From assembly GCA_001780035.1 (NCBI GenBank), contig MFEY01000007.1:6212-70211 (forward strand): DNA of 64,000 nt, read 5' to 3'. Shown one piece after another: positions 15,062-45,764 of the stretch. The notes beneath the pieces were generated by a model. The model was not told the DNA's origin. It searched no databases and saw only the letters and a program-made list of their open reading frames with translations. The stretch is from Candidatus Doudnabacteria bacterium RIFCSPHIGHO2_12_FULL_48_16. Its GTDB lineage: Bacteria; Patescibacteriota; Doudnabacteria; UBA920; O2-02-FULL-48-8. A program made the position numbers and the translations under genes. Numbering within the stretch: position 1 is the first letter of the stretch; each line of letters starts with the position of its first letter.

Positions 15062-16701
15062 ATCCCTGCTTGTTTGGTCAGTTGCGGCAACAAACTGATG
15101 CCGGTCATTTCAGCGGGTTTTTCTATCCCCATCAATTCTAGCATGGTCGGCGCTACGTCCGAAAGTACCCCCACGGGGACAATCCCCGCTAGCGACACAA
15201 TTCCCCCTTCTTTGGGGTGCTTGCGCTTGAGTTGGCCCATAACCGCGACTAAGGGCACCGGGTTGGTTGAATGCTCTTTATCGATCCCGCCAGATCGAAT
15301 ATCCAGCAACTCCTCGACATTGCCGTGATCCGCGGTGATCAGCAGCGCAATGTTTTGGTTTAGGCATTCGGCCGACAGTTTTTGTAGGCATTCGTCGATT
15401 ACCTTGATCGCCTTGATCGATGCCTGCATGTTTCCCGTATGCCCAACCATATCAGGGTTGGCGTAATTAATCAGGTAAAACGTATAATTTTCTTTCAGCT
15501 TCCCAATCAACTCGTCCGTTGTCTTGTATGCGGACATTTCCGGCACATCGACATAATTTTGATAATTGGACGCGGGCGAAGTGATGATTTTTCGCTCCTC
15601 GCCGGGAAAAGGATTGATCACTCCGCCGTTGAAAAACACCGAAACATGCGCGTATTTTTCTGACTCGGCAATATGAAACTGCCGCAAGCCCTTCTTGCTG
15701 ATTAACTCGGCCATGCCGTTGGTAATTTCCTGGGGCGGGAAAGCCATTTTGACATTCAGGTCGTGAGCGAATTCGGTCATGGTGACAAATAACAGGTTTT
15801 TAAAAACCTTGGCCGGCTGGGTAAATTTATTGAAATTATTCTCCGCAAACGCGCGGGTGATCTGCAGGGCGCGATCCGGCCGGAAATTAAAATGGATTAC
15901 GGCATCATTGTCGGAAACCAGCGCCGGTTTGCCCAGCCTCGACTCGCCGTCGAGGCGAGGCGGGCCATTTTCCTGCAAAATCACATTCGGCGGCACCATT
16001 TCATCAAAAATATGCTGGGCATAACTATCCTCGATCGCCGCCTGGGCCGAACCCACCTGCTTGCCTTCGCCAAAGACCATGGCACGGTAAGTTTGCTCGG
16101 TCAAATTCCAATGCTCAGCCCGATCCATGGAATAAAATCGGCCGGTCACGGTGGCAATTTTGCCGACATCAAAATTCCGCATTTTCTTGCTCAGTTTATC
16201 CAATGTTTCCAGCGCAATTTGCGGCGGCGTATCGCGGCCGTCCAAAAACATATGAATATAGACGTTTTGGATTTTTTGTTCGGCCGCCAAGCCCAATAGC
16301 GCATAAAGATGCTCGTCATAACTGTGCACGCCGCCCGGACTGACCAGCCCGACCAGATGCAGATTGGAGTTGTTCTTCTTGACATGCTCGCAAGCCTGCA
16401 GGAATGCCGGGTTCCTAAAAAAACTCCGGTCCTCGATGGATAATGTAATCCGCGATAAATCCTGGCCAATAATTCGGCCCGCGCCTAGATTCAAATGCCC
16501 GACTTCGGAATTGCCCATTTCACCCCAGGGCAGGCCCACCGACGGTCCCGAAGCCTGCAAGGTGGTGGCGGGATAATTATCGATCAGGTAATTGATGTGT
16601 GTCGGCTGCGCCATAACAATGGCATTGCCTTGCGATCCGGTGGCAATACCAAACCCGTCGAGGACCACTAAGACTAATTTTTTATAAGGTTGGATGGTCA
16701 T
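15058..16701 (-). CDS. gpmI: 2,3-bisphosphoglycerate-independent phosphoglycerate mutase
   Basis: The 547-aa product is collinear with iPGM (…VVLDGFG…, …SEVGHLNLGAGR…, …ADHGN…). Confidence 0.9.
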   Translation of the reverse strand: MTIQPYKKLVLVVLDGFGIATGSQGNAIVMAQPTHINYLIDNYPATTLQASGPSVGLPWGEMGNSEVGHLNLGAGRIIGQDLSRITLSIEDRSFFRNPAFLQACEHVKKNNSNLHLVGLVSPGGVHSYDEHLYALLGLAAEQKIQNVYIHMFLDGRDTPPQIALETLDKLSKKMRNFDVGKIATVTGRFYSMDRAEHWNLTEQTYRAMVFGEGKQVGSAQAAIEDSYAQHIFDEMVPPNVILQENGPPRLDGESRLGKPALVSDNDAVIHFNFRPDRALQITRAFAENNFNKFTQPAKVFKNLLFVTMTEFAHDLNVKMAFPPQEITNGMAELISKKGLRQFHIAESEKYAHVSVFFNGGVINPFPGEERKIITSPASNYQNYVDVPEMSAYKTTDELIGKLKENYTFYLINYANPDMVGHTGNMQASIKAIKVIDECLQKLSAECLNQNIALLITADHGNVEELLDIRSGGIDKEHSTNPVPLVAVMGQLKRKHPKEGGIVSLAGIVPVGVLSDVAPTMLELMGIEKPAEMTGISLLPQLTKQAGI

Positions 16702-16705
16702 AAAA

Positions 16706-17947
16706 TCACTTCCCTTCCAATGCCTTAATTGCCGGTAATTCTTTGCCGGCTAAAAATTCCAGCATGGCGCCGCCGCCGGTGGAAACATGATCCACGAACT
16801 GCGAGACTTTGGCCAGGTCAAACACTTCCACCGTTTCCCCGCCGCCGATCACTCCGAACGCCTTGCCTTTTGACCGGCTGGCGAACACTTGCGCCAAAGA
16901 CTTGCTGCCAAAAGCAAATTTCGGATTTTCGAACAAGCCAAACGGCCCGTTCCAAACCAAGGTTTGGGCCTGCTTGATCAGGCCGGAAAATTTGCGCACG
17001 CTTTCCGGTCCAATGTCCAGAATCTGCTCGGCTTTTTTTACACCATCCACTTTGACTAAGCTAGCTGTGCCGGCCGGGTTTGGGGCCGTAACCAAATCCA
17101 CGGGTAAAACAATTTTGGTTTTGTAGCTCCGCAGCAATTGCCTGGCCAGCGGAACATCGGAAACTTTTGACCCGCCAATTTCATAACCGTGCGCGGCCAA
17201 AAAGGCATTCGCCACGGCCCCGCCGACAATGATCTGTGAGGCGTGCTGGGCCAGATTGTGAATTGTTTCAATTTTATCATCAATTTTTGCTCCGCCGACC
17301 ATAAACACAAACGGCTGGGCCGGGTTGCTGATGATTTTCTGCAGTGATCTAATCTCTTTGATGAAATTCACACCACCATAGGCCGGCAGCTTACGAGCCA
17401 AGCCGAAGGTCGAAGCATCCTTGCGGTGGGCTACCGAGAACGCCTCATTGACGTAAACGTCGCCAAACCGGGCCAGAACCTCGACAAACTCTTCATCGTT
17501 TTGCTGTTCGCCCGGATAAAACCGCAAATTTTCCAGAAACAAAATGTTACCGGCCGAAATTTTTTTGCTCCAGCCGGAGTGGTCTTGCTTAGTGATGTCT
17601 TGGGCAAAAAAATACAGGTGGGGCACGGAATAGCTCGGTATCCGATCCACTATCTCGACGAATTTAAAATTCAACAGTTGGGCCAATTTTTCGGCCACCG
17701 GCCGCAGACTCTTTGATTTATCCCAACCCTCCGGCCGGCCCAGATGGGACATGACGATAATTTTGGCTTTTTGTCCGATCAAATACTTCAAGGTCGACAA
17801 AACGTCTTTGATTCTCGTATCATCTGCAACTATCAATTCTTCCCCCTCCCCCTTCCCCCCTCTACCCTCTTTTAATGGCACGTCAAACCCGGCGCGCAAA
17901 ATCACGCGCCGGCCAGTTACTTTGACACTTGTAATGCTTTTTATCAT
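16706..17947 (-). CDS. pgk: Phosphoglycerate kinase
   Basis: 413 aa with PGK motifs (…VIVMSHLGRP…, …FLENLRF…, …GGGA…). Confidence 0.9.
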   Translation of the reverse strand: MIKSITSVKVTGRRVILRAGFDVPLKEGRGGKGEGEELIVADDTRIKDVLSTLKYLIGQKAKIIVMSHLGRPEGWDKSKSLRPVAEKLAQLLNFKFVEIVDRIPSYSVPHLYFFAQDITKQDHSGWSKKISAGNILFLENLRFYPGEQQNDEEFVEVLARFGDVYVNEAFSVAHRKDASTFGLARKLPAYGGVNFIKEIRSLQKIISNPAQPFVFMVGGAKIDDKIETIHNLAQHASQIIVGGAVANAFLAAHGYEIGGSKVSDVPLARQLLRSYKTKIVLPVDLVTAPNPAGTASLVKVDGVKKAEQILDIGPESVRKFSGLIKQAQTLVWNGPFGLFENPKFAFGSKSLAQVFASRSKGKAFGVIGGGETVEVFDLAKVSQFVDHVSTGGGAMLEFLAGKELPAIKALEGK

Positions 17948-17971
17948 AAATCGTATAATCTCCTCGAAACC

Positions 17972-18085
17972 GTCTTTGCGAGCGGCCGCTTTATAATCTA
18001 TATAAACTTAGCGGCCGCGAAGCAATCTCTTTATTGGGGTAAGATTGCTTCGTCGTCCCGACAAGTCGGGACTCCTCGCAAAGAC
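17972..18085. repeat. IR-B element, copy a (GTCTTTGCGAG … CCTCGCAAAGAC)
   Basis: The terminal inverted repeats flank internal hairpins agcggccgc…gcggccgct, cgaagcaatct…agattgcttcg and gtcccgac-aa-gtcgggac. The element sits just upstream of the pgk start. Confidence 0.55.
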
Positions 18086-18099
18086 AGAAAAAATAATAT

Positions 18100-18279
18100 C
18101 TATCTTTTCTTCGTCTTCGCATCCCTGATCATCACTCCGCCCGGGACTTTCGTCAGCAGCAAATACTGACGTTCGCGCCAGCCAAACGACCGGATAAACT
18201 CTGCGGGAACAATCAGCGCCAGGGATTTTCCCGCGCCAACTCTGGTCAGTTTTCTTTTTGAATTGATCGGCCTTGCCAT
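18100..18279 (-). CDS. AbrB/MazE/SpoVT-family small DNA-binding protein (59 aa). It is not in the ORF track, which only lists ORFs of 60 aa or more
   Basis: MARPINSKRKLTRVGAGKSLALIVPAEFIRSFGWRERQYLLLTKVPGGVMIRDAKTKKR is a swapped-hairpin AbrB/MazE signature (…vG.S.a..iP.e…g…). A paralog lies at 22836-23009. Confidence 0.5.
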   Translation of the reverse strand: MARPINSKRKLTRVGAGKSLALIVPAEFIRSFGWRERQYLLLTKVPGGVMIRDAKTKKR

Positions 18280-18321
18280 ATTTAACTACTTACTTAAGTA
18301 AGTAGTTTAGTGCTGAGTTAC

Positions 18322-18927
18322 TTATTTCGTAAACTTGAAAGTGGACAGGATTTGATCCACCAAAGGAGATACTTTATTAACATAATCATTACTATCGCTT
18401 AAAACATCCGTAAAACTTAGAAAATAAGTTAGAGCAAATGCATTGTTGTTTTTTTCAAAGACAACAATTCTCATGACCCCTAATCCTGTATCGTAGACCA
18501 ATTCGAACGCATCTTCCTGCGCAAATACTATTTTCTGGTTAGATATTAATTTGAACCCTCTAGCCGCGTTGTAAACATTTAACCAATTATTTGCTACTGT
18601 CGATGCCGCTTTATTTTCATATACATACCAGACTGTACCCGAGGGTGCCTGACCTTGAACTTTAGGACCTGTTACCGATACTAAATTCTCATACCACAGC
18701 GAATCGCTCGCGTCGGACTTTGGAAGATGTCTGTCGATTAACTCCCAATTGCTTGGATACTTAAACTCAAACCCGTATTTGGTATTGGTATAAGTTTTCC
18801 AATTCACGGTTTCATTTGTTGTGACTGGAGCCTTAACAATTCTGGGATTCTGCCACAGGTAAATGCCACCGACCACAACGATGGCGGCCGCAGCGAGAAA
18901 TAGATAGCCTAAAATTTTATGCTTCAT
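18322..18927 (-). CDS. Membrane-anchored extracytoplasmic protein, member of the W-TY-N-KYGFEF-YP family, paralog 1
   Basis: N-terminal transmembrane segment, motif [20 protein letters not shown], and a C-terminus …ILSTFKFTK shared with 22033, 23093, 23907 and 45219. Confidence 0.5.
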   Translation of the reverse strand: MKHKILGYLFLAAAAIVVVGGIYLWQNPRIVKAPVTTNETVNWKTYTNTKYGFEFKYPSNWELIDRHLPKSDASDSLWYENLVSVTGPKVQGQAPSGTVWYVYENKAASTVANNWLNVYNAARGFKLISNQKIVFAQEDAFELVYDTGLGVMRIVVFEKNNNAFALTYFLSFTDVLSDSNDYVNKVSPLVDQILSTFKFTK

Positions 18928-19655
18928 TTTAATTCTTTAATTTTCTTAATTAAATTTTCTGGATACCAAACTGGTCCGATTATAACTGGTGCTATTGAAT
19001 TATAATCTGTTGTTCGCAGAACCACATTACCACTTTTGGAATCAGATAATTTAGCCAAAGATCCTAACACAGCGGTCGCTGGTATCGTCCGGCCCCGTGT
19101 TGAAATCATCTGCCAATAAGAAAACTTGGTTGGATAAATTTCAGTAATATTTTTGATATAAATCGTGCGGAGATTATACATTAATGGCAGCAATCCTTTG
19201 ATCTCAACTCTGTCGCTATAAAGGATAAATTTTCTGGAAAATGCGCTAAAACCTAGAAAAATAATAATAATTAATATAACCAATCCGACTATTAATAACC
19301 TTATATCCAGTTGATCAAATGCTTTAAGTGCTCCATACAGAATAAATACACTCATAAAGCCAAAATATCCTAATACCACATAAAATCCGGATCTATCTTG
19401 CTTAATTTCAATCCCGTTCGTAATGAACTCATATTTATCAGCTGTCTTATTTTGTTCTTGAGGTATATTGCCCAGGCCAGAAAAGAAAAGAATCGCGCCC
19501 AACACCATCATAAAAATGCCGACAATTTGCAAATTCTCGTTTGGTTTTAATCCCCAAACCAATACTGCTCCGGCAATGGCGAAAATTAAACCAAATAAAA
19601 TTAACGTTTTAGATGAGATAAATTCTGACTTCTGTTCCATATTACTCTTTCCCAA
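18924..19655 (-). CDS. Polytopic membrane protein with a possible bacterial PH-like (YdbT/DUF304-like) segment
   Basis: 243 aa with several transmembrane helices. Its stop overlaps the start of 18322-18927 by 4 nt. Confidence 0.35.
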   Translation of the reverse strand: MGKSNMEQKSEFISSKTLILFGLIFAIAGAVLVWGLKPNENLQIVGIFMMVLGAILFFSGLGNIPQEQNKTADKYEFITNGIEIKQDRSGFYVVLGYFGFMSVFILYGALKAFDQLDIRLLIVGLVILIIIIFLGFSAFSRKFILYSDRVEIKGLLPLMYNLRTIYIKNITEIYPTKFSYWQMISTRGRTIPATAVLGSLAKLSDSKSGNVVLRTTDYNSIAPVIIGPVWYPENLIKKIKELK

Positions 19656-20733
19656 TTAAGATTGCCTGCTCCACAAAGCGGTTGGCATAGCCGAATTCAT
19701 TGTCATACCAGGCCACAACCTTAACCATATCGCCGTCGACCACTTGGGTCAGGGACAAATCAACTACCGCGGAGTGCGGGTTACCAATGATATCAGAAGA
19801 AACGATTGGATCGGTCGTAACTTCCAGAATGTTTTTCCACATCGGATGCTTGGCCATCTCAATAAAAGCGTTGTTCACTTCCTCAACCGTGGTTCTTTTG
19901 TTCAACAGCGCGGTAAAATCTGAAAGAGAACCGCAGGCCACCGGCACCCGGAATGCAATTCCGCCAAACTCACCCTTGAGCTCCGGGATAACTTCAGTCG
20001 CCGCGATCGAGGCGCCGGTCGAGGTCGGTGTGATGTTGAAACCGGCGGCGCGCATTCGGCGCAGATCTTTATGCAATGGCGGCGGCGGCCCATCCACCAA
20101 ATTCTGCTCCACGGTCAGGGCATGAATCGTCGACATCATCATTTTTTTGACGCCAAACTTGCTATGCAGAATGGCTGCCACCGGCGTGATACAGTTGGTG
20201 GTGCAAGAGGCGTTGGAAATCACATTCTGGCCTTTGTATTGATCGCTGTTGACCCCCAAAATAAACGTCGGGGTAATTCCATCATCTTTCGCCGGGGCGG
20301 AAATAATGACTTTTTTGGCGCCGGCTTTGAGGTGAGCGGAGGCCAGCTCGGTGGTAATAAATCGGCCAGTCGATTCCAGCACCACGTCCACATTTAAATC
20401 CCGCCAGGGCAGCATAGCCGGGTCTTTTTCGGCGAAAATCGGAGTTTTCCGGCCATCGACGGTCAGTGTCCCGGCCGAAGAAATCAACGGGTTGGCTTTT
20501 TCTTTTTTGGTATCAAAACTCACCGGCTTGTCGTAAACGCCGTAGACCGAATCGTATTTTAAAAGGTTGGCCAGCACATCCGGTTCGGTCAGATCGTTGA
20601 TGGCCACCACCTGCAGTTCGGGTTTGGTCAGGGCAATTTTAAAGGCCTGCCTCCCGATCCGGCCAAATCCGTTGATCGCTATGCGAATTTTGCTCGCCCC
20701 GTTAGATTTTACAGAATTTTTATCGTTAATCAT
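19642..20733 (-). CDS. gap: Glyceraldehyde-3-phosphate dehydrogenase, type I
   Basis: INGFGRIGR Rossmann motif and the ASCTTNC active site. The N-terminal 14 aa (MINDKNSVKSNGAS) are encoded by the IR-A2 element, so the ancestral start is probably near KIRIAINGFGRIGR. Confidence 0.9.
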   Translation of the reverse strand: MINDKNSVKSNGASKIRIAINGFGRIGRQAFKIALTKPELQVVAINDLTEPDVLANLLKYDSVYGVYDKPVSFDTKKEKANPLISSAGTLTVDGRKTPIFAEKDPAMLPWRDLNVDVVLESTGRFITTELASAHLKAGAKKVIISAPAKDDGITPTFILGVNSDQYKGQNVISNASCTTNCITPVAAILHSKFGVKKMMMSTIHALTVEQNLVDGPPPPLHKDLRRMRAAGFNITPTSTGASIAATEVIPELKGEFGGIAFRVPVACGSLSDFTALLNKRTTVEEVNNAFIEMAKHPMWKNILEVTTDPIVSSDIIGNPHSAVVDLSLTQVVDGDMVKVVAWYDNEFGYANRFVEQAILIGKE

Positions 20734-20782
20734 AAGTTATCATCCCCGTATTGATTTTTCTAAAAAATCTAACGGGGTGAAT
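20697..20782 (-). mobile_element. IR-A2 element, copy 2, at the 5-prime end of gap
   Basis: Arms CCCCGTTAGATTTT / AAAATCTAACGGGG. The interior is homologous to the 42555-42637 copy, including an ATG that is in frame with gap. Confidence 0.5.
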
Positions 20783-20905
20783 TTATTTTACAATAGTTAA
20801 AAGAAACGCTGCCACAAACAGAGCCCACGCCATAAAAATGATATGTTCGGTGGGGTCCGAGAAATGGAAGTATTCATGCAATTTTTTGGTCTGCTTTTTT
20901 GCCAT
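20783..20905 (-). CDS. Possible 40-aa small membrane peptide
   Basis: MAKKQTKKLHEYFHFSDPTEHIIFMAWALFVAAFLLTIVK ends in a single hydrophobic helix. It sits between fba and gap. This is a weak call. Confidence 0.2.
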   Translation of the reverse strand: MAKKQTKKLHEYFHFSDPTEHIIFMAWALFVAAFLLTIVK

Positions 20906-20938
20906 TTGAATTATTCCTGGTGAATTAATTATTATTTT

Positions 20939-21820
20939 CTAAATTTGGTTGCTTGTTTTCAAAACCTTCAGCTTGTGTTCGGCGACCTTTTGTAAGGCGT
21001 CAGTCGCGGGGGCCAGGAGTTTTCGCGGATCATAGATTTGAGGATTCTTTTTGAGATTGGCCCTTAAAGCTTTGTTAAATGCCACTCGCAGATCGGTATC
21101 GATATTGAACACGGCGACATTAAATTTGATTGCCGCCCGCAGCTGGGCATCGGGCACGCCGGACGCGCCATGCACGACCAGGGGAATTTTGACCTTCTGC
21201 CGGATCGCGGCCAGACGTTTGAGATCGATATGCTCCCTCAGGGTGGTTAAAACTTTTTTAATTCGCGGATCAATCGGAATGCCGTGCATCGACCCCACGG
21301 CTACCGCCAGCGTATCGATTCGGGTTTGAGCCACAAAATCCGCGGCCTGATCCGGATCTGTCATCAAATCTTCCCCCGATTTCACGTTTTGCCAATCTTC
21401 GTTGCCGAGGATCCGGCCGAGTTCGGCCTGGACCCAGACTCCCCGCTTGTGCGCGTAAGCAACCACTTGTTTGGTCAGCTTCAAATTTTCTTTGTAGGGC
21501 AAATGCGAGGCATCAATCATGACCGAGCTATAACCGAGATCGATTAATTTTTTTAATAAATTAAAATCATGGCAATGATCCTGATGCAGAGCAATCGGCA
21601 CGCGGGCTTGCCGCGCTTCGGTTTTGATCAAACCAACCAGTTCTTCGATCCCGGCGTATTCGAGAGCGCCAACCGAGGTCTGGATGATGATTGGAGCTTT
21701 CTGCGCTTGTGCGGCTCTTACGATCCCCAGTGTGGTTTCCAAATCCTGGGTGTTGAATGCCGGCACGGCATATTTGCCGAGCATGTGTCTGTTGATCAGT
21801 TTGCCAATATGGACGAGCAT
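20939..21820 (-). CDS. fba: Fructose-bisphosphate aldolase, class II
   Basis: Class II FBA metal-binding motifs (…IALHQDHCHDF…, …HGASG…). 293 aa. Confidence 0.9.
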   Translation of the reverse strand: MLVHIGKLINRHMLGKYAVPAFNTQDLETTLGIVRAAQAQKAPIIIQTSVGALEYAGIEELVGLIKTEARQARVPIALHQDHCHDFNLLKKLIDLGYSSVMIDASHLPYKENLKLTKQVVAYAHKRGVWVQAELGRILGNEDWQNVKSGEDLMTDPDQAADFVAQTRIDTLAVAVGSMHGIPIDPRIKKVLTTLREHIDLKRLAAIRQKVKIPLVVHGASGVPDAQLRAAIKFNVAVFNIDTDLRVAFNKALRANLKKNPQIYDPRKLLAPATDALQKVAEHKLKVLKTSNQI

Positions 21821-22027
21821 TTAGAATTTGATTCCGGCCTTAAAGATATCCATCAGGCTGGGCAGTTTGGGGTTGCCGGCCTTGGGCTTGCAAACAGCAT
21901 AAATCAATTTGTATTCGCAATTAAAATTCTTCGCGGTCGAGGCGGTTAGGCCGCGCCAAAATATGAAGCCGAGCACTATTACTACAACCAGGATAATTCG
22001 ATTTCTCATTTTTTTCTTGATGTACAT
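21821..22027 (-). CDS. Small hypothetical secreted or membrane protein
   Basis: 68 aa with an N-terminal hydrophobic segment. Its stop abuts the fba start. Confidence 0.3.
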   Translation of the reverse strand: MYIKKKMRNRIILVVVIVLGFIFWRGLTASTAKNFNCEYKLIYAVCKPKAGNPKLPSLMDIFKAGIKF

Positions 22028-22032
22028 ATTAA

Positions 22033-22839
22033 TTATTGTATTTCAAGGGTGGATAATAGCTTTTGAAACTCAAGTTTCTTATGAGCTAAATCTGGATCCT
22101 TATCAGGATTTGGGATATAGAGCTCGAAGGCAATTCCTGAAAAATCCTTCGATGACTTGAGATTAAAAATAGCACCATAACGCCAGGGATAATACCACTC
22201 CATCCCGACGTAAGTTATAGGGTCAATAAAAATACCTGTAGTATTCACACCTGTAACCTCACTAATTAATTTGGAATCAAGCAGATATTTGGTGTTTTGA
22301 ATATATTTGAAGTAATATGCTGTAAGATTTTTAACGTAACCTGTACTATCAAAAAATTGTCCACCTCGATTAGTCTGGAAATCGGAACTAATGCCACCAA
22401 ATAATGCATAACGACTGTTTTGCCCTGGTGGTTTATAATATGCAGCAAATGTTTTCCCTTTGACCTGATCGGGATAAGATGTGTACCCGTAAGTTTCACC
22501 ATTTTTAATTTCGAGGGATATCTCGCCCCAATCGGATGGATATTCAAACTTTACCCCAAGCTCTTTACTTTCAAATGTCTTCCAGTTCAAGGTGTCATTT
22601 GTAGTTTCGGATTTTCTACAATTAGTTCCAGCATCAGGAAAATTGTCTTCCGGGATACAGGTATATCCAGAAGTCGGACAAGGAATGCCGGCAACACTAC
22701 CGCAAAAAATTTCACCTTTGTCTTGGTGGACCACTGGGCCTGGGATCGCCTGGTGCGCCACCTGCCAATAATAAAGCACTGACACGACTGCCGCGCCGAT
22801 CGCCACCAGAAATATGATTCCTAAAACTTTGTATTTCAT
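22033..22839 (-). CDS. Membrane-anchored extracytoplasmic protein, same family, paralog 2
   Basis: LNWKTFESKELGVKFEYPSDW motif with an N-terminal transmembrane segment. Its ATG overlaps the TGA of the upstream AbrB-like gene (ATGA). Confidence 0.5.
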   Translation of the reverse strand: MKYKVLGIIFLVAIGAAVVSVLYYWQVAHQAIPGPVVHQDKGEIFCGSVAGIPCPTSGYTCIPEDNFPDAGTNCRKSETTNDTLNWKTFESKELGVKFEYPSDWGEISLEIKNGETYGYTSYPDQVKGKTFAAYYKPPGQNSRYALFGGISSDFQTNRGGQFFDSTGYVKNLTAYYFKYIQNTKYLLDSKLISEVTGVNTTGIFIDPITYVGMEWYYPWRYGAIFNLKSSKDFSGIAFELYIPNPDKDPDLAHKKLEFQKLLSTLEIQ

Positions 22840-23009
22840 TTGGTTTTCTTATGTTTCGTCATGGCGTCCCGGATCGAAATGCCCCGGGGCATACGCTTCA
22901 CCAAAACCCTTTGTCGCTCGCGCCAGCCCAAGGTTTTCAGTAATTCTTTTGGAATTACAACGGCCAATGATCTTTTGCCAACTCTGGTTACTTTATAAAC
23001 GTTTTTCAT
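22836..23009 (-). CDS. AbrB/MazE/SpoVT-family small protein (57 aa, not in the ORF track)
   Basis: MKNVYKVTRVGKRSLAVVIPKELLKTLGWRERQRVLVKRMPRGISIRDAMTKHKKTK is a paralog of 18100-18279. It is translationally coupled to the downstream family member. Confidence 0.5.
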   Translation of the reverse strand: MKNVYKVTRVGKRSLAVVIPKELLKTLGWRERQRVLVKRMPRGISIRDAMTKHKKTK

Positions 23010-23092
23010 TTGCTTTTGCTACGTAGCATGCTACGTAATTATATTATTTTTTAGGGAGTTTTCTCGAAGCCAATTAGCAAGCTATCTAACAT

Positions 23093-23818
23093 TTATTTAC
23101 TAAATTTAAATGTTGAGAAAATTTGATTAAGCAAATCCATTCGGCCGGAAATATGATATACACGTCCACTTAATTCTGTTAAATAGTCTGAATCACCGAG
23201 TTTCGTCCAAGAAATTCCGTAATAATTTGCAGACGTTTCTGTTTTATTTTTTAAATACTGGTTATCTCTTTTCACTATTGCGAGTTGTGAATTATAAACA
23301 TCAACCCGGGCATTGAAATCTTGTACCGGATACCTCTCAAATATCGCCACAAAAGTTCGAGAATCTGGCATATAGTCAATAGAACTAGCTGGATATTCTT
23401 TTGCTGTCCAGGTTTTTGGATATTGGAACTCAAAACTATATTTTTCGCTGCAGTAAGTCTTAAATTCTCGAGTTTCAACAATACCTGTACAGAAATTGGT
23501 TGTACTTTCATGATGTATAATCTCGGATATAGATTTATCTGGCAAAAATTTTATCAGTAACACTAAACTTACAATACCAAGACCTAATAACGTTACCAAG
23601 ACCGAAGTTAATTTTGATTTCTTCCGCAATTGCCATGCAAATAGCATAAGCAGTATTACAAACATCAACGCTAGTAAATCTAAATTTTCAGTCAACCAAT
23701 TGCCTGAATTATCGCTAAAAGATGTCACTAGAACTAAAAAGAATACGAATCCGCCAAAAATAATCAGTCCAATTACGAACCAAAACCATCCTTCGTTCTT
23801 CTGATCTTGTGGGTTCAT
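23093..23818 (-). CDS. Membrane-anchored extracytoplasmic protein, same family, paralog 3
   Basis: …EFKTYCSEKYSFEFQYPKTW… and a C-terminus …IFSTFKFSK. Confidence 0.5.
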   Translation of the reverse strand: MNPQDQKNEGWFWFVIGLIIFGGFVFFLVLVTSFSDNSGNWLTENLDLLALMFVILLMLFAWQLRKKSKLTSVLVTLLGLGIVSLVLLIKFLPDKSISEIIHHESTTNFCTGIVETREFKTYCSEKYSFEFQYPKTWTAKEYPASSIDYMPDSRTFVAIFERYPVQDFNARVDVYNSQLAIVKRDNQYLKNKTETSANYYGISWTKLGDSDYLTELSGRVYHISGRMDLLNQIFSTFKFSK

Positions 23819-23906
23819 AAGCTATATTTCCCTTGCTCTAAATTTCGGATGCTTTTTCATATAGGCTTCGATTTCCGGAATTTTTATGATAAATGCTTTC
23901 ATAAAA

Positions 23907-24752
23907 TCAATAAAATTTGAAGCTGGAAAGGATTTGATTGATAGTTTCAATGTTATTAACAAATACTTGTCCTGCGGTGAAAACTTGCACTTCAACCACT
24001 TTTTGCTCATGCTCAAAGAAATAAAGATTACCACCACCAAAAACATTAGGTCCAGCTTCCGCCTTATATCCAATATTATCCCCGACTATTATCCTCTCCG
24101 CATTTATGATATAAGGATCTGGTCCTAAAGAATATTTGCTTATAAAATCATTTAAGTCTTTTGTTCCCAATTTTTTCCAGTCAAGTTGTGAAAGTTGAGA
24201 ATATAGAGTGGCTCTAAATAAGTAAGGTAAATCCGTGTCGACATGACTACTGGAAGAAACAGAAGGAGGATCAGCTAACAAGACATCAGCTCCCCTATTC
24301 GACAGGCTAGTTTGAAAATGCCAATCGCCTGGATACTTAAGCTCAAAACCGTATTTCTCATCCCTATATACTTTCCAATTCCCGGTTTCAGCAGCCTCCT
24401 TGGCCTTCCTTTGTTGTATTAGTTGGTCAGCATTATATAAAAAACTGTTTTGTGTACTTATGTTTTGCAAATACGAAATAGCGCCAAGTACTATTCCCAC
24501 AATTAATAATAAAACGGCATATTTAAAAATTTTCTTCCTGATATTTTCTTTCTTTATGGGGAGATCATGTGCTCCAACGAGTAATAATAGTCCTACCAAA
24601 AGCAACATGATAAGTATAAGATAGTTTCCTCCTGAATCGAGTTCTCCTAAAGCAGTCTTGACATAAAACCAAAAAGCAATTGATCCAAGGGCCAAAATAA
24701 CGAATGAAACGCCAATGATATATAATATAGTTTTTATCATTTTTATATTCAT
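23907..24752 (-). CDS. Membrane-anchored extracytoplasmic protein, same family, paralog 4
   Basis: …NWKVYRDEKYGFELKYPGDW… and a C-terminus …ILSSFKFY. Two N-terminal transmembrane helices. Confidence 0.5.
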   Translation of the reverse strand: MNIKMIKTILYIIGVSFVILALGSIAFWFYVKTALGELDSGGNYLILIMLLLVGLLLLVGAHDLPIKKENIRKKIFKYAVLLLIVGIVLGAISYLQNISTQNSFLYNADQLIQQRKAKEAAETGNWKVYRDEKYGFELKYPGDWHFQTSLSNRGADVLLADPPSVSSSSHVDTDLPYLFRATLYSQLSQLDWKKLGTKDLNDFISKYSLGPDPYIINAERIIVGDNIGYKAEAGPNVFGGGNLYFFEHEQKVVEVQVFTAGQVFVNNIETINQILSSFKFY

Positions 24753-24755
24753 AAT

Positions 24756-25196
24756 CTATATTTCTCTGGCTCGAAATTTCGGATGCGTCTTTAAATATTT
24801 TTCAATCTGCGGCCTGGTCTGTAGCCCGGCATGCGGCCCGATATGCATCACGACATTGCCGCCGTTTATAGTTCCCCAGGCCATAGCTTCTCCGACATTT
24901 TTTCCGTAAAAAATCGCGGCAGTAAATGCGGTGCCAAACGCGTCCCCGGCTCCGGTGGCTTCGATATGCGGGCCTACAAATTCATCCATTTTAAGCTGGC
25001 TACCAACCGCATCCAAGACTTCTGCGTCTATTTTATCTACAAGCTGAGACAAAATCGCGTCAAAACCCGCTGTTTCCAGCTTTAGTTCGTCTTTAGACAA
25101 TGGCCTATCCAAAGAGGATACTTTTACATCATGACCGGCCTGAGCCAATAAATCCAAACCTGTTTGTGGAATTTTTCTTGTAACGAATATTTTCAT
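24756..25196 (-). pseudogene. Chimeric gene remnant: an N-terminal fragment of a D-2-hydroxyacid dehydrogenase fused to the C-terminal third of a PfkB kinase
   Basis: MKIFVTRKIPQTGLDLLAQAGHDVKV…DKIDAEVLDAVGSQLK looks like a 2-Hacid_dh N-terminus. It is followed by GPHIEATGAGDAFGTAF…YLKTHPKFRAREI, which matches the last roughly 75 aa of the pfkB product at 25637-26611. A third 13-aa copy (…YMKKHPKFRAREI) ends ORF 23822-24073. Confidence 0.45.
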
Positions 25197-25208
25197 AGAA
25201 TTTTTTCT

Positions 25209-25317
25209 GTCTTTGCGAGGAGGAACGTCTGACGTTCCGACGAAACAATCTCTGGAAGAGATCGCCGCGCGACTGCCGAGAATAATACTTATTGATAAAG
25301 CAGTCGCTCGCGAAGAC
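25209..25317. repeat. IR-B element, copy b
   Basis: gtctttgcgaggagg … cgctcgcgaagac, with internal hairpins ggaacgtctgacgttcc and caatctctggaagagatcg. Confidence 0.5.
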
Positions 25318-25359
25318 GTAATTTATTGATTAATTTTTCTTGTGACAAATATTTTCATG

Positions 25360-25635
25360 TTAAATCAAGGAGTTGAATATATTTTTCCAGATATTAAAGG
25401 TTAAAACCACGAAAGAAACAATAAACAACAATGCCCCCGGTATAAATTGCCTTCTCATAAAAATAGCGCCACCATACAGCAAACCAAATAACGCCAGTGG
25501 ATAAAGAAAAATAGCGATCATGAGTTTGCCGTAATCGATAAATCCAATCTCTCCGCGTAAACCAAAAAACATTAGCAACTCAACAGCTGACAATACTAAA
25601 GGCAAAACCCAATTTAGCAACATCTCTTTTTTCAT
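25360..25635 (-). CDS. Small two-helix membrane protein
   Basis: 91 aa, hydrophobic throughout. Confidence 0.3.
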   Translation of the reverse strand: MKKEMLLNWVLPLVLSAVELLMFFGLRGEIGFIDYGKLMIAIFLYPLALFGLLYGGAIFMRRQFIPGALLFIVSFVVLTFNIWKNIFNSLI

Positions 25636-25636
25636 C

Positions 25637-26611
25637 TTAAATCTCCCGCGCCCTAAACTTAGGGTGCTTATTCAGATAATTCTCGATCTGCGCTCTAGTT
25701 TGCAATCCTTTGTGCGGTCCCACATGCATTACCACATTGCCGCCGTTGATCGTGCCCCAGGCGATGGCTTCGCTGACAGGTTTACCCAAGGCAATGGCTG
25801 CGGTAAACGCGGTTGAGTAGGCATCACCCGCCCCGGTGGCTTCGATATGCGGGCCCGGATATTCATCCAGATACCAAACGCGGGTCTGGCCCGAAGCATA
25901 AGACCCCTGCCGGCCGTCAGTCAGCACGGCAATTTTGGCGCCCAGCTTGTGCATGCCTTTGAGCAATGTTTTAACATTGCGCGTATTTTCCTTCAGCACC
26001 AGCTGCGCTTCTTCCCGATTGAGGAACAAAATTTCCGTGCGCTTGTAAATCCCGTTCAGTTTTGAAGCCCCCATCCGCATCTGGAACGTGCCGGGGTTGA
26101 ACGACAACCTGATTTTGGAATTTCGGTTCAAAAAACTTTCGATCTCCTTGTGAAATTTCTCGGTGCCGGCAGCCATGGAGGAAAAATAAATCCAATCGGT
26201 ATTCAGTTTCGGCAATTTATAAGCGAACTTGTTGTGCTTAATCAAGATCGTGCGCTCACCCTGAAACGACAGGACGAAATGGAAATTGGTCAAGACGCCC
26301 TGGTTGGCATGGATAAACTGCGTGTCGATTCCTTCGGCCTTCAGCTCCCGGACAATCTTACGGCCGTTTTCATCATCGCCGACCGAGGTCACAAACGCGT
26401 TACGCAAGCCGAGGCGAGCCGAACCCACGGCATTATTGGTCGAATTGCCGGCCGGGAGCATGGTCAAGCTTTCATAAGGAACTTTATCCGCATAAGAAAG
26501 ACAAAGCTGGCAGTTGGTATGGTCAACTGAGCAATGAACCGACGCCTCGTGCAGTTCAATAAACGCATCGATGGTCGTATCACCAATTGAAACTATGTCG
26601 TATTTCGGCAC
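25637..26611 (-). CDS. PfkB-family carbohydrate kinase (ribokinase/fructokinase-like)
   Basis: …VGDDENG… and a C-terminal GAGDAYSTAF…TINGGNV motif. 324 aa. Confidence 0.8.
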   Translation of the reverse strand: MPKYDIVSIGDTTIDAFIELHEASVHCSVDHTNCQLCLSYADKVPYESLTMLPAGNSTNNAVGSARLGLRNAFVTSVGDDENGRKIVRELKAEGIDTQFIHANQGVLTNFHFVLSFQGERTILIKHNKFAYKLPKLNTDWIYFSSMAAGTEKFHKEIESFLNRNSKIRLSFNPGTFQMRMGASKLNGIYKRTEILFLNREEAQLVLKENTRNVKTLLKGMHKLGAKIAVLTDGRQGSYASGQTRVWYLDEYPGPHIEATGAGDAYSTAFTAAIALGKPVSEAIAWGTINGGNVVMHVGPHKGLQTRAQIENYLNKHPKFRAREI

Positions 26612-26684
26612 TTTTTTGTTTCGGAAAGTTACTTTTACCTGTTTATTATAATGAATTGTTAAAAAATATGCAAATTAAAAAACC

Positions 26685-26781
26685 GTCTTTGCGAGGAGGC
26701 CAATTTTTGAGCCTTAACTTAGTGGCTGATGAAGCAATCTCTTTTCTCGTGATGAGATTGCTTCGTTTCGCTCGCAAAGAC
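26685..26781. repeat. IR-B element, copy c
   Basis: gtctttgcgaggagg…gaagcaatctcttttctcgtgatgagattgcttcg…cgctcgcaaagac. Confidence 0.55.
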
Positions 26782-26789
26782 AATCTTTT

Positions 26790-27821
26790 CTATCTTTTTC
26801 TCTGGATAACTTTCTTTACCGCCGCGATGATCGCTTTTGAATCCATACCCCACTTGGCAATCAGTTCGTTGGGTTCGCCGCTTTCGCCAAAGTGATCAGG
26901 CATACCCACAAATTCCTGCGGCACCGGGAAATTTCTGGATAAAACTTCCGCCACCGCGCCCCCAACGCCGCCGGTAATCTGGTGCTCTTCGGCGGAAACC
27001 ACACAGCCGGTTTTTTTCACAGAAGTAACCAGAGTTGGCTCATCGATCGGCTTGACCGAAACTAAGTTGATCACTTCGCATTCAATTCCTTCTTTCGACA
27101 GCTGGTCCGCGGCTTGGAGCGCGTAGTAAACTTGCGGCCCGGCCGCCGCGATCGTGCAATCCTTGCCTTGGCGGAAAATAAAAGCCCGGCCAATTTCAAA
27201 GGGCGTCTCTTCCGTGGTAAATTGGGGGGTTTTTTCTCTGGCCAGGCGGATATACACCGGCCCGTTGAATTTGGCGCTCGCAACGGTGGCCTTGCGGGCC
27301 TCCAGGGCGTCACACGGCACCAGCACGCTCATCCGCGGTAGGACGCGGGTCATGGCGATGTCTTCCATGGCCTGGTGCGTGGCGCCATCCGGCCCCACCG
27401 AAATACCCGCGTGGGAGCCCACGATTTTCACATTATTGCCAGAATAGCAGATCGAAACCCGGATCTGATCCCAGTTGCGCCCGGGCGAAAATGTGGCGTA
27501 GGATGTGATAAACGGAATCTTGCCTTCGTGGGCCATGCCAGCGCCAAGGCCCGCTAAGTTCTGTTCAGCCACGCCGACTTCCACGAACCGGTCCGGATAG
27601 GCCCGGGCGAATTCTTGCGAGCGGGTCGATTCGGTCAGATCGCAGCAAAGCACGATGACATTGGGATTTTCTTTGCCCAAAACCATAAGCCCATCGCCGT
27701 AACCGTTACGGATCGGGACTTGCTTGATATCGGGCGCAAATAAATTATCTGTTAATTTAGCTGGCATTTGTATCTTTGTTCTCGTGAATAAAGGCTTTGT
27801 ATTCGGATAATTTTTTATCAA
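26790..27821 (-). CDS. tktB: Transketolase C-terminal subunit (pyrimidine-binding and C-terminal domains)
   Basis: 343 aa covering the second half of transketolase (…GPDGATHQAMEDIA…). Together with 28173-29078 this is a split transketolase. Confidence 0.85.
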   Translation of the reverse strand: MIKNYPNTKPLFTRTKIQMPAKLTDNLFAPDIKQVPIRNGYGDGLMVLGKENPNVIVLCCDLTESTRSQEFARAYPDRFVEVGVAEQNLAGLGAGMAHEGKIPFITSYATFSPGRNWDQIRVSICYSGNNVKIVGSHAGISVGPDGATHQAMEDIAMTRVLPRMSVLVPCDALEARKATVASAKFNGPVYIRLAREKTPQFTTEETPFEIGRAFIFRQGKDCTIAAAGPQVYYALQAADQLSKEGIECEVINLVSVKPIDEPTLVTSVKKTGCVVSAEEHQITGGVGGAVAEVLSRNFPVPQEFVGMPDHFGESGEPNELIAKWGMDSKAIIAAVKKVIQRKR

Positions 27822-29309: not shown

Positions 29310-29439
29310 GTCTTTGCGAGGAACCGCTTTATTATTTTAGGTTTAACCTTGGCGGCGACGAAGCAATCTCTTTTAAGCGGCGAGATTGCTTCGCGGCGGC
29401 TTAAACTAATTCTTAATAAGTTCCGCCGCTCGCAAAGAC
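29310..29439. repeat. IR-B element, copy d
   Basis: gtctttgcgagg…cgaagcaatctcttttaagcggcgagattgcttcg…cgctcgcaaagac. Confidence 0.55.
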
Positions 29440-31248: not shown

Positions 31249-32043
31249 TTACCGATGTATACTTTCACGTTCGAACTCCTTGATTATTTCATAAAAATTA
31301 TCGGCGTTGAGGCTGGCCGCGCCGACCAAAGCGCCGCTGATTTCCGGATAGCGAGCATAGAGGCTGACATTGTCTTTGTTCACGGTGCCGCCATAAAGCA
31401 CTTTGGCCTTTCGGGCCTTAGCTGCCGGCATATGGCGCTCCAATATTTGGTAAATATGCTCGATGACATCCCGCGCATGTTCGCCGCTGGCCGGTTTGGA
31501 ATTTTTCATGGTCGAGATGGCCCAGACCGGTTCATAGGCATAGACAATTTTTTTCAGATCCTCCGCGGCAACATTGTGGATGCATTTAACAAACTGTTTG
31601 GTGACCAGAGTTTTCATTTCGCTCTCAATCGCCCCCTCTTCGCCGCCTAGGCACAAAATCGGAATCAGTTTGTGTTGCAGAGCGGCAATCAATTTGGCAT
31701 TAACTACTGAATCGGTTTCACCCTGATACATCCGCCGCTCCGAATGACCCAAAATCACATACTCAACGCCGAGATCGGCCAGTTCGCCGGCGGAAATTTC
31801 ACCAGTCATGCTGCCCGCTGCCGCAAAGCTTACATCCTGGGCGCCTAATTTTAAATTATGGCGCCGCTTGGCACATTCCGCCAAAAATACAAACGGCGGG
31901 CAAATCACGTTCTCGCAATTTGGCTCGCTGTCCTTCAAATAACGCTCCAGCGATTTGATCAGTTCGACGGCTTGCTCTTGCGTCTCCGGGTTCATTTTCC
32001 AATTACCGACAACCAACTTTTTCAAGTGCAAATTAGTCCTCAA
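31249..32043 (-). CDS. tpiA: Triosephosphate isomerase
   Basis: …VVGNWKMN…, …ILGHSERR…, …YEPVWAI… 264 aa. Confidence 0.85.
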   Translation of the reverse strand: MRTNLHLKKLVVGNWKMNPETQEQAVELIKSLERYLKDSEPNCENVICPPFVFLAECAKRRHNLKLGAQDVSFAAAGSMTGEISAGELADLGVEYVILGHSERRMYQGETDSVVNAKLIAALQHKLIPILCLGGEEGAIESEMKTLVTKQFVKCIHNVAAEDLKKIVYAYEPVWAISTMKNSKPASGEHARDVIEHIYQILERHMPAAKARKAKVLYGGTVNKDNVSLYARYPEISGALVGAASLNADNFYEIIKEFERESIHR

Positions 32044-32563
32044 TGGGAATAAGATTAAAAGTCAAAAGAATTTTGTTAATGTCGGATTTGGATCCCCGGA
32101 TAACGTAAATATGCCGGTCCGTTTTGGCTAAGACGACACCCTCCACACGGCCACCGCCCAAATCATTGACGATACCGGTGGCTTTCACGCCGTCAACCAT
32201 GACTGGGCTTTCCGAGATAACGTTCAACGGTTTGCGGATCGTTCGTTCGGCATTCGGTTTATAAACGCTGACTTCGATTCCCTGTCCGCTCTCCGGTGCA
32301 AATATGGCGCTGACCTCATCGGCTTCCACGGCCCAGGAGGCCGGATAGCGCAGCGAAAAACCCAATTTGGGGTTTTCGTAAGTGTGCCAGGAAACAAAGG
32401 TTTGTTCGGCGACCTGGCTGCTCTGAGCTTCGTCGCTGACTTTGATGTATCCGATCAATGCGATAGCCACGAATAATACATAGGCAATGGCCCAAATCAG
32501 CCAGCGGTTATGATGGACTTTAATTTTATGCAAGCGGTAGATTGGGTGTTTTTGTTTGGCCAT
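32033..32563 (-). CDS. Membrane-anchored extracytoplasmic protein, distantly related to the paralog family
   Basis: An N-terminal transmembrane segment, then …VSWHTYENPKLGFSLRYPASW…. Confidence 0.4.
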   Translation of the reverse strand: MAKQKHPIYRLHKIKVHHNRWLIWAIAYVLFVAIALIGYIKVSDEAQSSQVAEQTFVSWHTYENPKLGFSLRYPASWAVEADEVSAIFAPESGQGIEVSVYKPNAERTIRKPLNVISESPVMVDGVKATGIVNDLGGGRVEGVVLAKTDRHIYVIRGSKSDINKILLTFNLIPIED

Positions 32564-45218: not shown

Positions 45219-45764
45219 TTATTTAGTGAATTTAAAACTGGAAAGAATCAGCTTTATCTCGTCCAGATTATATTTCTGGGTCAAAATATAATAAATTGTA
45301 CCGTTATGTTTAACTAAAACTTCGTATGAGGAAACGCTCACACTGCCGTCTTCATTCGTTCCGGGATACTTTTCAACAAATGCATATCCATTTTCGCCGG
45401 CAAAAGTAATTGCGGATTCAACCGGTACGCTGCCACCCACTGCCTTCTTTAACTGCTGTCTGACGGTTTCAAAAGGCTTGGTTTCTATTCGGACAGCTAG
45501 ATAAACTGTCATATTGTCAGCATCAGATTTACTTTGCAAAACAGTGTTTTCAAAGTCAATTCCGTCACTACCGTTCAGTAAATATTTGTCAGCGGGATAT
45601 TCAAATTCAAAACCATACTTAGTATTTGTGTAGGTTTTCCAGGTCGCGGGGTCAGTATCAGTTTTAGTAATTGTTTGATTCTGGGCAGGCTGAACAGCGG
45701 CTTGCTGGTTGCAGGCGGCGGCGATGAACAACATTGAAATTGTCAGAAATAAAAGTTTCTTCAT
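45219..45764 (-). CDS. Lipoprotein of the W-TY-N-KYGFEF-YP family, paralog 5, inserted between rpsS and rplB
   Basis: Lipobox LFIAAAC, motif [21 protein letters not shown], and a C-terminus …[10 protein letters not shown]. Confidence 0.55.

Follow-up and report, generated by a model that had tools for sequence, protein, structure and literature searches.

How do truncated copies of two housekeeping genes come to be stacked beside a resident gene? The question is posed by a 64-kb stretch of DNA (the window) from a genome of Candidatus Doudnabacteria, a group within the candidate phyla radiation (CPR), from Rifle aquifer groundwater. In the window, the sugar kinase gene pfkB is followed by remnants of pfkB 3' ends (tails), by 5' ends (heads) of a 2-hydroxyacid dehydrogenase gene (Hacid) and by genes for membrane proteins with a PsbP-like domain. 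An earlier description, made from the letters of the window (the sequence-only reading), ascribed this pattern to one resident duplication unit that carried the tail of pfkB with it. Our analysis indicates that the tails come from other, diverged pfkB genes. On balance, we consider serial one-sided replacement, and not in-place copying, to be the probable origin of the array.

Every gene between 16.7 and 29.2 kb lies on the minus strand. The order of transcription is tktN, tktC, a palindromic element, pfkB, TM91, H0, a palindromic element, a chimeric open reading frame (ORF), G1, a mini-ORF, G2, abrB2, G3, orf68, fba, gapdh, TM243, p18322, abrB1, a palindromic element and pgk (Table 1). We refer to the interval from pfkB to orf68 as slot 1 and to that from gapdh to pgk as slot 2. 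The layout of slot 1 is pfkB(T1)-TM91-H0, the palindromic element, then H1::T2-G1-H2::T3-G2-abrB2-G3-orf68-fba. Here, T1 to T3 denote tails, H0 to H2 heads and G1 to G3 PsbP-like genes. The region is AT-rich, as the sequence-only reading had noted, with a GC content of 0.33-0.40 within 22-25 kb against ~0.47-0.53 in the flanks. Contigs of one Doudnabacteria population, among them GCA_001780075.1 and those of several independent assemblies, match the window completely or at >99.9% identity, and gene order does not differ in any of them. Hence, the arrangement is not an assembly artefact. One candidate strain variant, P0003, was rejected; its DNA is identical and the start call alone differs.

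The chimeric ORF fuses a Hacid head (H1) to a pfkB tail (T2). Pfam recognises both parts, with matches to 2-Hacid_dh across residues 3-70 (26.3 bits, cut-off 24.6) and to PfkB across residues 79-124. T2 is 79% identical to aa 248-324 of the resident kinase (tblastn, E 1.5e-37). The second remnant, T3, is 76% identical (E 2.7e-4, or 7e-6 with the chimera as query). The chimera and both tails had been picked out by the sequence-only reading, and the similarity of the tails to pfkB is significant on proper alignment. However, T3 is 17-18 aa long, not 13 as first thought. It is preceded by a short head, H2 (MKAFIIKIP), comparable to the Hacid head MKIFVTRKIP, and the H2::T3 joint falls at a Pro codon common to both parents (KIPQ and RPQIE). 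In a six-frame search the head pattern, chosen after the site had been seen, was found at H2 and the chimera start only. H2 is recognised by this protein pattern; its nucleotide Smith-Waterman score does not stand out. The resulting mini-chimera starts 4 nt past the G1 stop and in frame with T3. The remainder of ORF 23822-24073, which overlaps G1, is probably spurious. T2 precedes G1 and T3 precedes G2. Each tail ends 3 nt before the next ATG, and the two share a TAG stop and the spacing to that ATG (84% identity over 50 nt). The breakpoints differ: head residue 70 meets tail residue 248 in the chimeric ORF, and head residue ~9 meets tail residue ~307 in the mini-chimera. No other gene in the window leaves truncated copies, and a search for further dehydrogenase remnants downstream of G2 gave nothing significant. 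We conclude that rearrangement has left genuine scars here, in the form of the pfkB tails and the chimeric ORF.

We compared T2 with T1, the corresponding end of the resident gene. Nucleotide identity is 0.71 and third-position identity 0.42. The proportion of non-synonymous differences (pN) is 0.133 and that of synonymous differences (pS) is 0.81, which is saturated. Ortholog pairs of different species average pN 0.21 and pS 0.81. T2 contains no stop codon, and in an alignment of 18 functional tails it is unchanged at each of the 30 columns where conservation reaches 90% or more. When 67 random substitutions were placed on T1 in a neutral simulation (5,000 trials), amino acid identity averaged 46% and never exceeded 58%, against 79% observed, and a stop codon appeared in 87% of trials. 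Hence, nearly all divergence between T1 and T2 arose within working kinase genes, and truncation was recent. Judged by these substitution patterns, the remnants appear to be the ends of other, diverged pfkB genes. At the nucleotide level T2 is closer to tails of relatives (L006 0.758, L008 0.749, L005 0.732) than to T1, which is its nearest neighbour in 4% of codon bootstraps. T2 also has fewer non-synonymous differences to orthologs than T1 has. The window and L005 are ~0.77 identical over pfkB aa 1-247, above the 0.71 between T1 and T2, and L005 is without a second tail.

H1 behaves similarly. Its pN of 0.18-0.28 is inside the ortholog range, and two of 27 invariant columns are changed, compared with two to four in orthologs. 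GC content at third codon positions (GC3) is 0.35 in H1, 0.51 in the T2 half of the chimera and 0.59-0.64 in backbone genes of the window. In relatives, Hacid GC3 tracks that of pfkB within 0.03. By these measures, H1 looks freshly cut and foreign in codon composition.

For context, we examined 17 Doudnabacteria loci with pfkB orthologs (64-85% identical) in the same place. They share the backbone tktN-tktC-pfkB-[slot 1]-orf68-fba-gapdh-[slot 2]-pgk. L014 and L017 have nothing in slot 1. In five loci (L005, L008, L010, L012 and L019), a full Hacid gene has its start at most 10 nt from the pfkB stop. A PsbP-like gene directly follows pfkB in six (L006, L007, L009, L013, L015 and L016), with L013 having the order pfkB-PsbP-like-Hacid. 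In L018, L020 and L021, slot 1 holds an AbrB-like gene and then a membrane protein gene. Slot 2 holds from zero to three PsbP-like genes, with three in L009. Thus, the slots are filled differently by lineage: they are empty, or contain Hacid, one to several PsbP-fold proteins and/or a small AbrB-type gene. A second pfkB tail is present in none of the 17 relatives, and each of 26 related loci has at most a single pfkB match. The resident pfkB itself looks mosaic. Over ~aa 1-200 it is closest to L005 (0.75-0.84 nucleotide identity). Over the last 80 codons, identity to L005 is 0.64-0.68, with L006 and L008 as the nearest sequences. A recombination breakpoint around aa 220-245 is suggested by this pattern, although the windows are noisy.

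The analysis shows directly the scars, which are conserved as coding sequence yet saturated relative to the resident gene, together with the foreign composition of H1, the differing slot contents and the predicted PsbP fold (see below). As an explanation for the array, we propose serial one-sided replacement. Donor DNA would come from diverged Doudnabacteria with the arrangement pfkB-X-Hacid or pfkB-Hacid, both of which exist in relatives. On the upstream side, within tkt or pfkB, linear donor DNA would recombine by homology. The right end of the donor DNA, which lies in the 5' region of Hacid, would be joined illegitimately to the resident pfkB within the 3' end of that gene. With each event, a new intact pfkB and a new downstream gene would be installed, and the old pfkB tail and old downstream gene pushed further along. 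From a starting state R0, pfkB(T3)-G2-abrB2-G3, event R1 would add pfkB(T2)-G1-H2, event R2 pfkB-palindromic element-H1 and event R3 pfkB(T1)-TM91-H0. Three events after R0 would then yield the present stack. The position of H2::T3, 4 nt past the G1 stop and in frame, is as the model predicts. We infer both the order of events and the mechanism, which would resemble homology-facilitated illegitimate recombination (HFIR) after DNA uptake.

Could the stack have arisen in place? Unequal crossing-over would copy a unit of pfkB tail, membrane protein gene and Hacid head several times, after which the copies would diverge, the surface proteins very fast. Duplication from pfkB-248 to Hacid-70 is expected to leave exactly the joint Hacid(1-70)::pfkB(248-324), and the like stops and spacing of T2 and T3 would follow too. 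G1 and G2 also have the same architecture of three transmembrane (TM) helices plus a PsbP domain and align over ~140 residues (E 8e-7), yet their nucleotide similarity is nil past the ATG. The age of the copies is harder to reconcile. T1 and T2 are synonymously saturated with the protein conserved, and so old a non-functional copy would be expected to have stops and ~46% amino acid identity. Divergence between T1 and T2 exceeds that between the window and L005, but no relative has a second tail. The non-synonymous differences of T2 to orthologs, fewer than those of T1, and the GC3 of H1, foreign to the backbone, also count against copying in place, which we consider rather unlikely. The single resident unit of the sequence-only reading, carrying the tail of the pfkB at 25637-26611, is not supported, given the pS of 0.81, the 30 unchanged columns and paralogs that are only 21-25% identical. 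An old array of complete pfkB-X units, in which two or three functional paralogs were long kept before recent deletions removed most extra copies, would explain why T1, T2 and T3 diverged in the manner of coding sequence, with no need for transfer between lineages. It is very unlikely, we think, given that no related locus of the 26 has more than one pfkB match. It would also require several independent recent deletions, each ending in a Hacid head, would leave the GC3 of H1 unexplained, and would place redundant kinases where they are not expected, in a reduced CPR genome. Finally, the chimeric ORF, and perhaps the mini-ORF at 23902, might be a functional new gene under selection, in which case conservation would say nothing of origin. 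The frame is intact over 146 codons, conserved residues are kept in both halves, and its position 4 nt upstream of G1 would suit translational coupling. However, to judge from Pfam coverage, neither 70 residues of a substrate-binding domain nor the last 77 of a ribokinase fold should be autonomous. The chimera is also seen in one population only (>99.9% identity), and its halves differ in GC3 (0.35 and 0.51). We give this explanation hardly any credence.

Several points weigh against serial replacement. At the protein level, T1 is the most frequent single nearest neighbour of T2 (36% of bootstraps), so this signal is ambiguous. The mosaic signal within the resident pfkB is noisy, with similarity to L005 falling after ~aa 220. 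Low GC3 is common to all accessory genes, and weak codon selection could partly explain it instead of foreign origin. Searches of protein databases turned up no lineage that could have donated T2-G1 or T3-G2. Among the pfkB tails there, those most like T2 are only 78-85% identical, and a search with the chimera returned the same population plus pfkB tails of at most 85% identity. No intermediate state or copy-number variant was found among contigs of this population. T3 and H2 are too short for rate tests. Alternatively, the palindromic element could have produced the 27-nt repeat shared by H0 and H1 (see below) as a target duplication. DNA uptake and recombination in this organism are proposals only, and the mechanism is drawn from a single population.

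Arrays of comparable form are known. Vibrio cholerae carries arrays of orphan immunity genes with 3' remnants of effectors in clusters of its type VI secretion system (T6SS), and Rhs and contact-dependent inhibition (CDI) loci have orphan C-terminal tips. For these, sequential displacement by an HFIR-like mechanism has been suggested, and duplication was rejected because the members are heterogeneous (Kirchberger et al. 2017, PMC5361080). The locus described here shares with the T6SS/Rhs arrays a conserved upstream anchor gene, and modules that would displace the resident copy and leave its 3' end with the downstream partner. In both cases heterogeneous downstream genes each follow a truncated 3' remnant and are too different to be duplicates. 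The systems differ in three respects. Here, a glycolytic kinase with a housekeeping role takes the place of a toxin as anchor; membrane proteins of the PsbP fold, instead of immunity genes, form the cargo; and the right-hand joints lie in a second housekeeping gene, at the Hacid head. Family scans and PADLOC detected no toxin, Rhs, VgrG, immunity family or secretion system at the window, and PADLOC found no known defence system. The resemblance is one of proposed mechanism only. HFIR itself occurs in the naturally transformable bacteria Acinetobacter, S. pneumoniae and P. stutzeri (cited in PMC5361080 and PMC3240628). As proposed for this locus, it combines one homologous end with one illegitimate end at microhomology, with net gain of foreign DNA next to a conserved gene. 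The Pro codon shared at the H2::T3 joint would be such a microhomology, here read from sequence.

The large, catalogued PsbP-like family and small AbrB-type regulators are already known. The stacked, coding-quality scars of two housekeeping genes represent a displacement array of a new form, in a CPR genome. The locus is an evolutionary record, in which truncated housekeeping pieces that look intact, having diverged as functional genes elsewhere, are stacked beside the resident copy. It is informative on recombination and surface-protein turnover in CPR bacteria. If serial displacement is correct, the locus gives direct sequence evidence that chromosomal DNA passes between fairly distant lineages of uncultivated CPR bacteria through one-sided recombination, and that conserved metabolic operons serve as landing pads on which fast-evolving surface proteins build up. 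A bolder version, which we think quite unlikely, makes the pfkB-3'/Hacid-5' boundary a standing cassette-exchange site. Co-occurring Doudnabacteria would swap and stack PsbP-fold surface alleles there, with old alleles still expressed by read-through of the glycolytic operon. Such a site would be a housekeeping-gene-anchored counterpart of the orphan immunity arrays, growing a surface or 'immunity-like' repertoire for episymbionts; the fold is common to Tsi3, EagT6 and DcrB. The locus offers two testable handles. One is the TACGTA-type palindromes, candidate operators for an AbrB-like protein family that is widespread in CPR bacteria; the other is a lineage-specific palindromic element with three hairpins.

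Table 1. Features of the locus and of PsbP-like genes elsewhere in the window, with positions counted from the first nucleotide of the 64-kb stretch.
Feature	Position	Strand	Description
p45219	45219-45764	-	PsbP_2 probable lipoprotein between rplB and rpsS
p32033	32033-32563	-	PsbP_2 paralog between ruvX and tpiA
pfkB	25637-26611	-	Resident pfkB-family sugar kinase, 324 aa; Pfam PfkB 112.8 bits
T1	25640-25870	-	Last 77 codons of resident pfkB
TM91	25360-25635	-	91-aa ORF, 3 predicted TM helices (hydropathy), between pfkB stop and dehydrogenase start
H0	25332-25358	-	First 27 nt (MKIFVTRKI) of Hacid gene, then NQ-stop; third head, after TM91
Chimeric ORF	24756-25196	-	146 aa, H1 fused to T2
H1	24987-25196	-	Hacid residues 1-70
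T2	24759-24989	-	pfkB residues 248-324, 77 codons
G1 (p23907)	23907-24752	-	281 aa, 3 TM helices and PsbP_2-like domain; start 4 nt past chimera stop
Mini-chimera	23822-23902	-	Head H2 (MKAFIIKIP) fused to T3 (EIEAYMKKHPKFRAREI); 26 codons from ATG at 23902
T3	23825-23875	-	pfkB aa 308-324; second remnant
G2 (p23093)	23093-23818	-	241 aa, 3 TM helices and PsbP_2-like domain
abrB2 palindrome	23020-23037		Perfect, 18 nt, TACGTAGCA/TGCTACGTA; 10 nt upstream of abrB2 ATG
abrB2	22836-23009	-	57-aa AbrB/MazE/SpoVT-type protein; ATGA overlap with G3
G3 (p22033)	22033-22839	-	268 aa, 1 TM helix, Cys-rich insert and PsbP_2-like domain
orf68	21821-22027	-	68-aa conserved membrane protein; downstream edge of slot 1, directly before fba
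fba	20939-21820		Downstream of orf68
TM243	18924-19655	-	4 predicted TM helices (hydropathy); in slot 2, gapdh to pgk
p18322	18322-18927	-	201 aa, 1 TM helix and PsbP_2 domain; slot 2
abrB1 palindrome	18284-18307		Perfect, 24 nt, AACTACTTACTT/AAGTAAGTAGTT; 4 nt upstream of abrB1
abrB1	18100-18279	-	59-aa AbrB/MazE-type protein, upstream of pgk
Palindromic element copies	17972-18085, 25209-25317, 26685-26781, 29310-29439		Partial copy at ~35738

The cargo genes belong to Pfam family PsbP_2 (PF18933). The gathering cut-off of 27 bits is passed by p18322 (34.1 bits), p45219 (33.2) and p32033 (27.6); G1 (25.7), G2 (24.4) and G3 (18.8) score under it. With a hidden Markov model (HMM) built from database homologs, exactly six ORFs in the window match, in agreement with the six membrane-anchored paralogs listed by the sequence-only reading. 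E-values are 2e-30 for G1, 1.3e-13 for G2 and 3e-9 for G3, none of which was in the training alignment. The motif W-TY-N-KYGFEF-YP and the C-terminal signature in that list also proved real, with W43, Y46, P58, I193 and F197 invariant in a 50-sequence alignment. The TM helices given in Table 1 for G1, G2, G3 and p18322 were predicted from hydropathy, as was a single helix in p32033. Read directly from its sequence, the N-terminus of p45219 is lipobox-like (...IAAAC). From the N-terminal anchors of all six proteins, the PsbP-like domain would lie outside the cytoplasm.

AlphaFold2 models of p18322 and the G1 domain have mean confidence (pLDDT) values of 79.9 and 87.4. The best Foldseek match of both is CyanoP (E 5e-7 for G1, 1.8e-6 for p18322). 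The top matches, CyanoP (2lnj, 2xb3) and plant PsbP, have E-values of 5e-7 to 2e-5 and TM-scores of 0.45-0.64, and the two models superpose best on CyanoP/PsbP at TM-scores of ~0.5-0.6. The next matches, Apa, DcrB, Tsi3 and EagT6, are of the same fold group, which also includes M. tuberculosis MTC28. On these models, the family is predicted to have the PsbP-type alpha/beta sandwich fold. DcrB, Apa and MTC28 are likewise exported or membrane-anchored bacterial proteins. Unlike the wider group, this bacterial subfamily has the strongly conserved W-KTY-N-KYGFEF-YP and ILSTFKF motifs, and G1 and G2 carry an extra N-terminal module of three TM helices. CPR bacteria are non-photosynthetic, and no photosystem gene is among the annotated ORFs of the window. 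PsbP function is inapplicable with no photosystem in a CPR bacterium; we class the window proteins with PsbP by fold, not by function.

A single-sequence search of 1.84 billion cluster representatives (50%-identity clusters) gave 4,582 matches at E<=1e-3, many of them proteins with more than one such domain. Named matches are from Pacebacteria, Nomurabacteria, Paceibacterota and Doudnabacteria. Hence, the motif is part of a common, catalogued fold with wide expansion among CPR genomes. We found nothing specific in the literature on PsbP_2 in CPR bacteria.

G1, G2 and G3 are mutually only 21-25% identical, and past the ATG they have no DNA similarity. G1 and G2 align at only 25%. The G2 domain is closer to a protein of the gapdh-pgk slot of L009 (46% identity, E 2e-32) than to any paralog in the window. 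G1 has no close homolog among 5.8e9 proteins; the search returned G1 alone. The N-terminal signal-anchor of G3 is 46-61% identical to those of genes after pfkB in L007, L009 and L016. Hence, G3, abrB2 and orf68 look like the old resident part of slot 1, and G3, by sequence and position, is a probable ortholog of the PsbP-like gene adjoining orf68 in relatives. Between its anchor and PsbP-like domain, G3 has a Cys-rich insert of ~36 aa (CGSVAGIPCPTSGYTCIPEDNFPDAGTNC; 22603-22710, residues 44-79). The insert is 64% identical to one in a slot 2 protein of L009 (16567-17463), and is also found in L011 and L014. One possibility is a small module, held by disulfide bonds, that is passed from one member of the family to another.

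The arrangement ruvX-p32033-tpiA is kept in most relatives, with p32033 only 27-49% identical where pfkB is 64-80% identical. Hence, the PsbP_2 family evolves fast. This bears out the fast-evolving, membrane-anchored and presumably surface-exposed locus envisaged in the sequence-only reading. We suggest that the PsbP-like proteins are extracytoplasmic binding modules under diversifying pressure. The p45219 gene lies between genes matching Ribosomal_L2 and Ribosomal_S19 (Pfam), and interrupts an otherwise conserved S10 ribosomal-protein operon.

Two small genes of AbrB/MazE type accompany the PsbP-like genes. MazE_antitoxin (PF04014) scores 31.2 bits with abrB2 and 18.7 with abrB1 (cut-off 24.7), and the two proteins are 50% identical (E 4e-18). 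The GC3 of abrB1 is 0.62, which is backbone-like. The sequence-only reading had typed both genes correctly, including the ATGA overlap of abrB2 with the next paralog, G3. It had also called both unannotated, which is true of abrB2 alone; abrB1 is called as a 59-aa hypothetical protein in the public annotation. NCBIfam matches are far under cut-off (TIGR02609 doc_partner, 19.5 bits against 55.9), and sequence searches found no relative of solved structure. In size, and in having a palindrome at their own promoter region, both resemble AbrB/MazE/SpoVT swapped-hairpin proteins (PF04014; TIGR01439). They differ from MazEF-type pairs. No toxin gene (MazF/PemK or Doc) is adjacent to abrB1 or abrB2, the downstream genes encode a PsbP-like membrane protein and pgk, and there is no PADLOC or toxin family match. 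Hence, these are not MazEF pairs.

The palindromes upstream of abrB2 and abrB1 have no spacer and are the two longest perfect palindromes in 17900-27000, the 24-nt one being the longest. Each is unique in the window even at three mismatches. Just before the abrB2 palindrome lies a TATAAT-like hexamer, a consensus match only. Enrichment was seen neither for sigma-70-like promoters nor for intrinsic terminators. The palindromes of the window sit at about -28, an offset at which perfect palindromes are also present in L017 and L020. In the 1,380 nt that precede 23 abrB-like genes we counted 20 TACGTA boxes, against 0.34 expected (~60-fold). A second subgroup has a ACTGAGTTAACTCA-type dyad. No Shine-Dalgarno sequence is present between palindrome and ATG of the abrB-like genes. 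In the window, L017, L020 and L033-L048, perfect palindromes and paired TACGTA boxes directly precede AbrB-like genes (55-63 aa) of a family widespread in CPR bacteria. The pattern points to AbrB-like proteins as putative autoregulated DNA binders, with the upstream palindrome as candidate operator, and abrB2 probably controls the translationally coupled G3. A role as dedicated regulators of PsbP-like genes, close to the sequence-only idea of a locus with its own small regulator, was rejected as a general rule. A PsbP-like neighbour was present at only one of 21 further metagenomic loci with an AbrB-like gene, L043 (gapdh-PsbP-like-abrB-pgk). The order abrB-(membrane protein)-orf68-fba recurs in four Doudnabacteria lineages. 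The order abrB-pgk is found in three, and is conserved in L017/L034 and L043.

TM91 has no family match and no homolog in relatives. It is bracketed by a 14/15-nt direct repeat, GATTTAAnATGAAAA, which may, speculatively, mark one more joint, formed where a pfkB tail comes to its very end. We considered TM91 as a truncated allele of the three-helix module of G1 and G2. The topology is similar, but sequence similarity is undetectable and the idea is speculation only. H0 and the chimera start (25170-25196) form a direct repeat, 25 of 27 nt being identical (92.6%, blastn) and both differences synonymous. H0 also has a weak tblastn match to residues 1-11 of the L013 Hacid. The repeat brackets the palindromic element copy at 25209-25317. 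We read it as one of two things: a further illegitimate joint or a target duplication of unusual length.

In slot 1, orf68 has one TM helix and two Cys, is 32-75% identical among relatives and is without family assignment. It lies immediately upstream of fba in all 15 Doudnabacteria loci that reach that far. In slot 2, TM243 (GC3 0.31) overlaps p18322 by 4 nt. The pair resembles G1, G2 and an L019 protein (16076-17491) in split form, with the multi-TM and PsbP-like parts that are fused in those proteins encoded by separate genes; sequence similarity between TM243 and the G1/G2 N-termini was not detected.

The palindromic element is ~100-130 nt long and nested, with three hairpins within an 11-bp outer stem. 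The outer stem (GTCTTTGCGAG/CTCGCAAAGAC) and central hairpin (GAAGCAATCTC...GAGATTGCTTC) are conserved. The two side hairpins are variable, with compensatory changes. RNA fold z-scores of the four copies in the window are -4.7 to -9.9, and there is no Rfam match. Spurious '...EIAS...' ORFs are translations of the element. Every copy falls between genes of the sugar-metabolism cluster. The loci of relatives almost entirely lack the element, which is lineage-specific.

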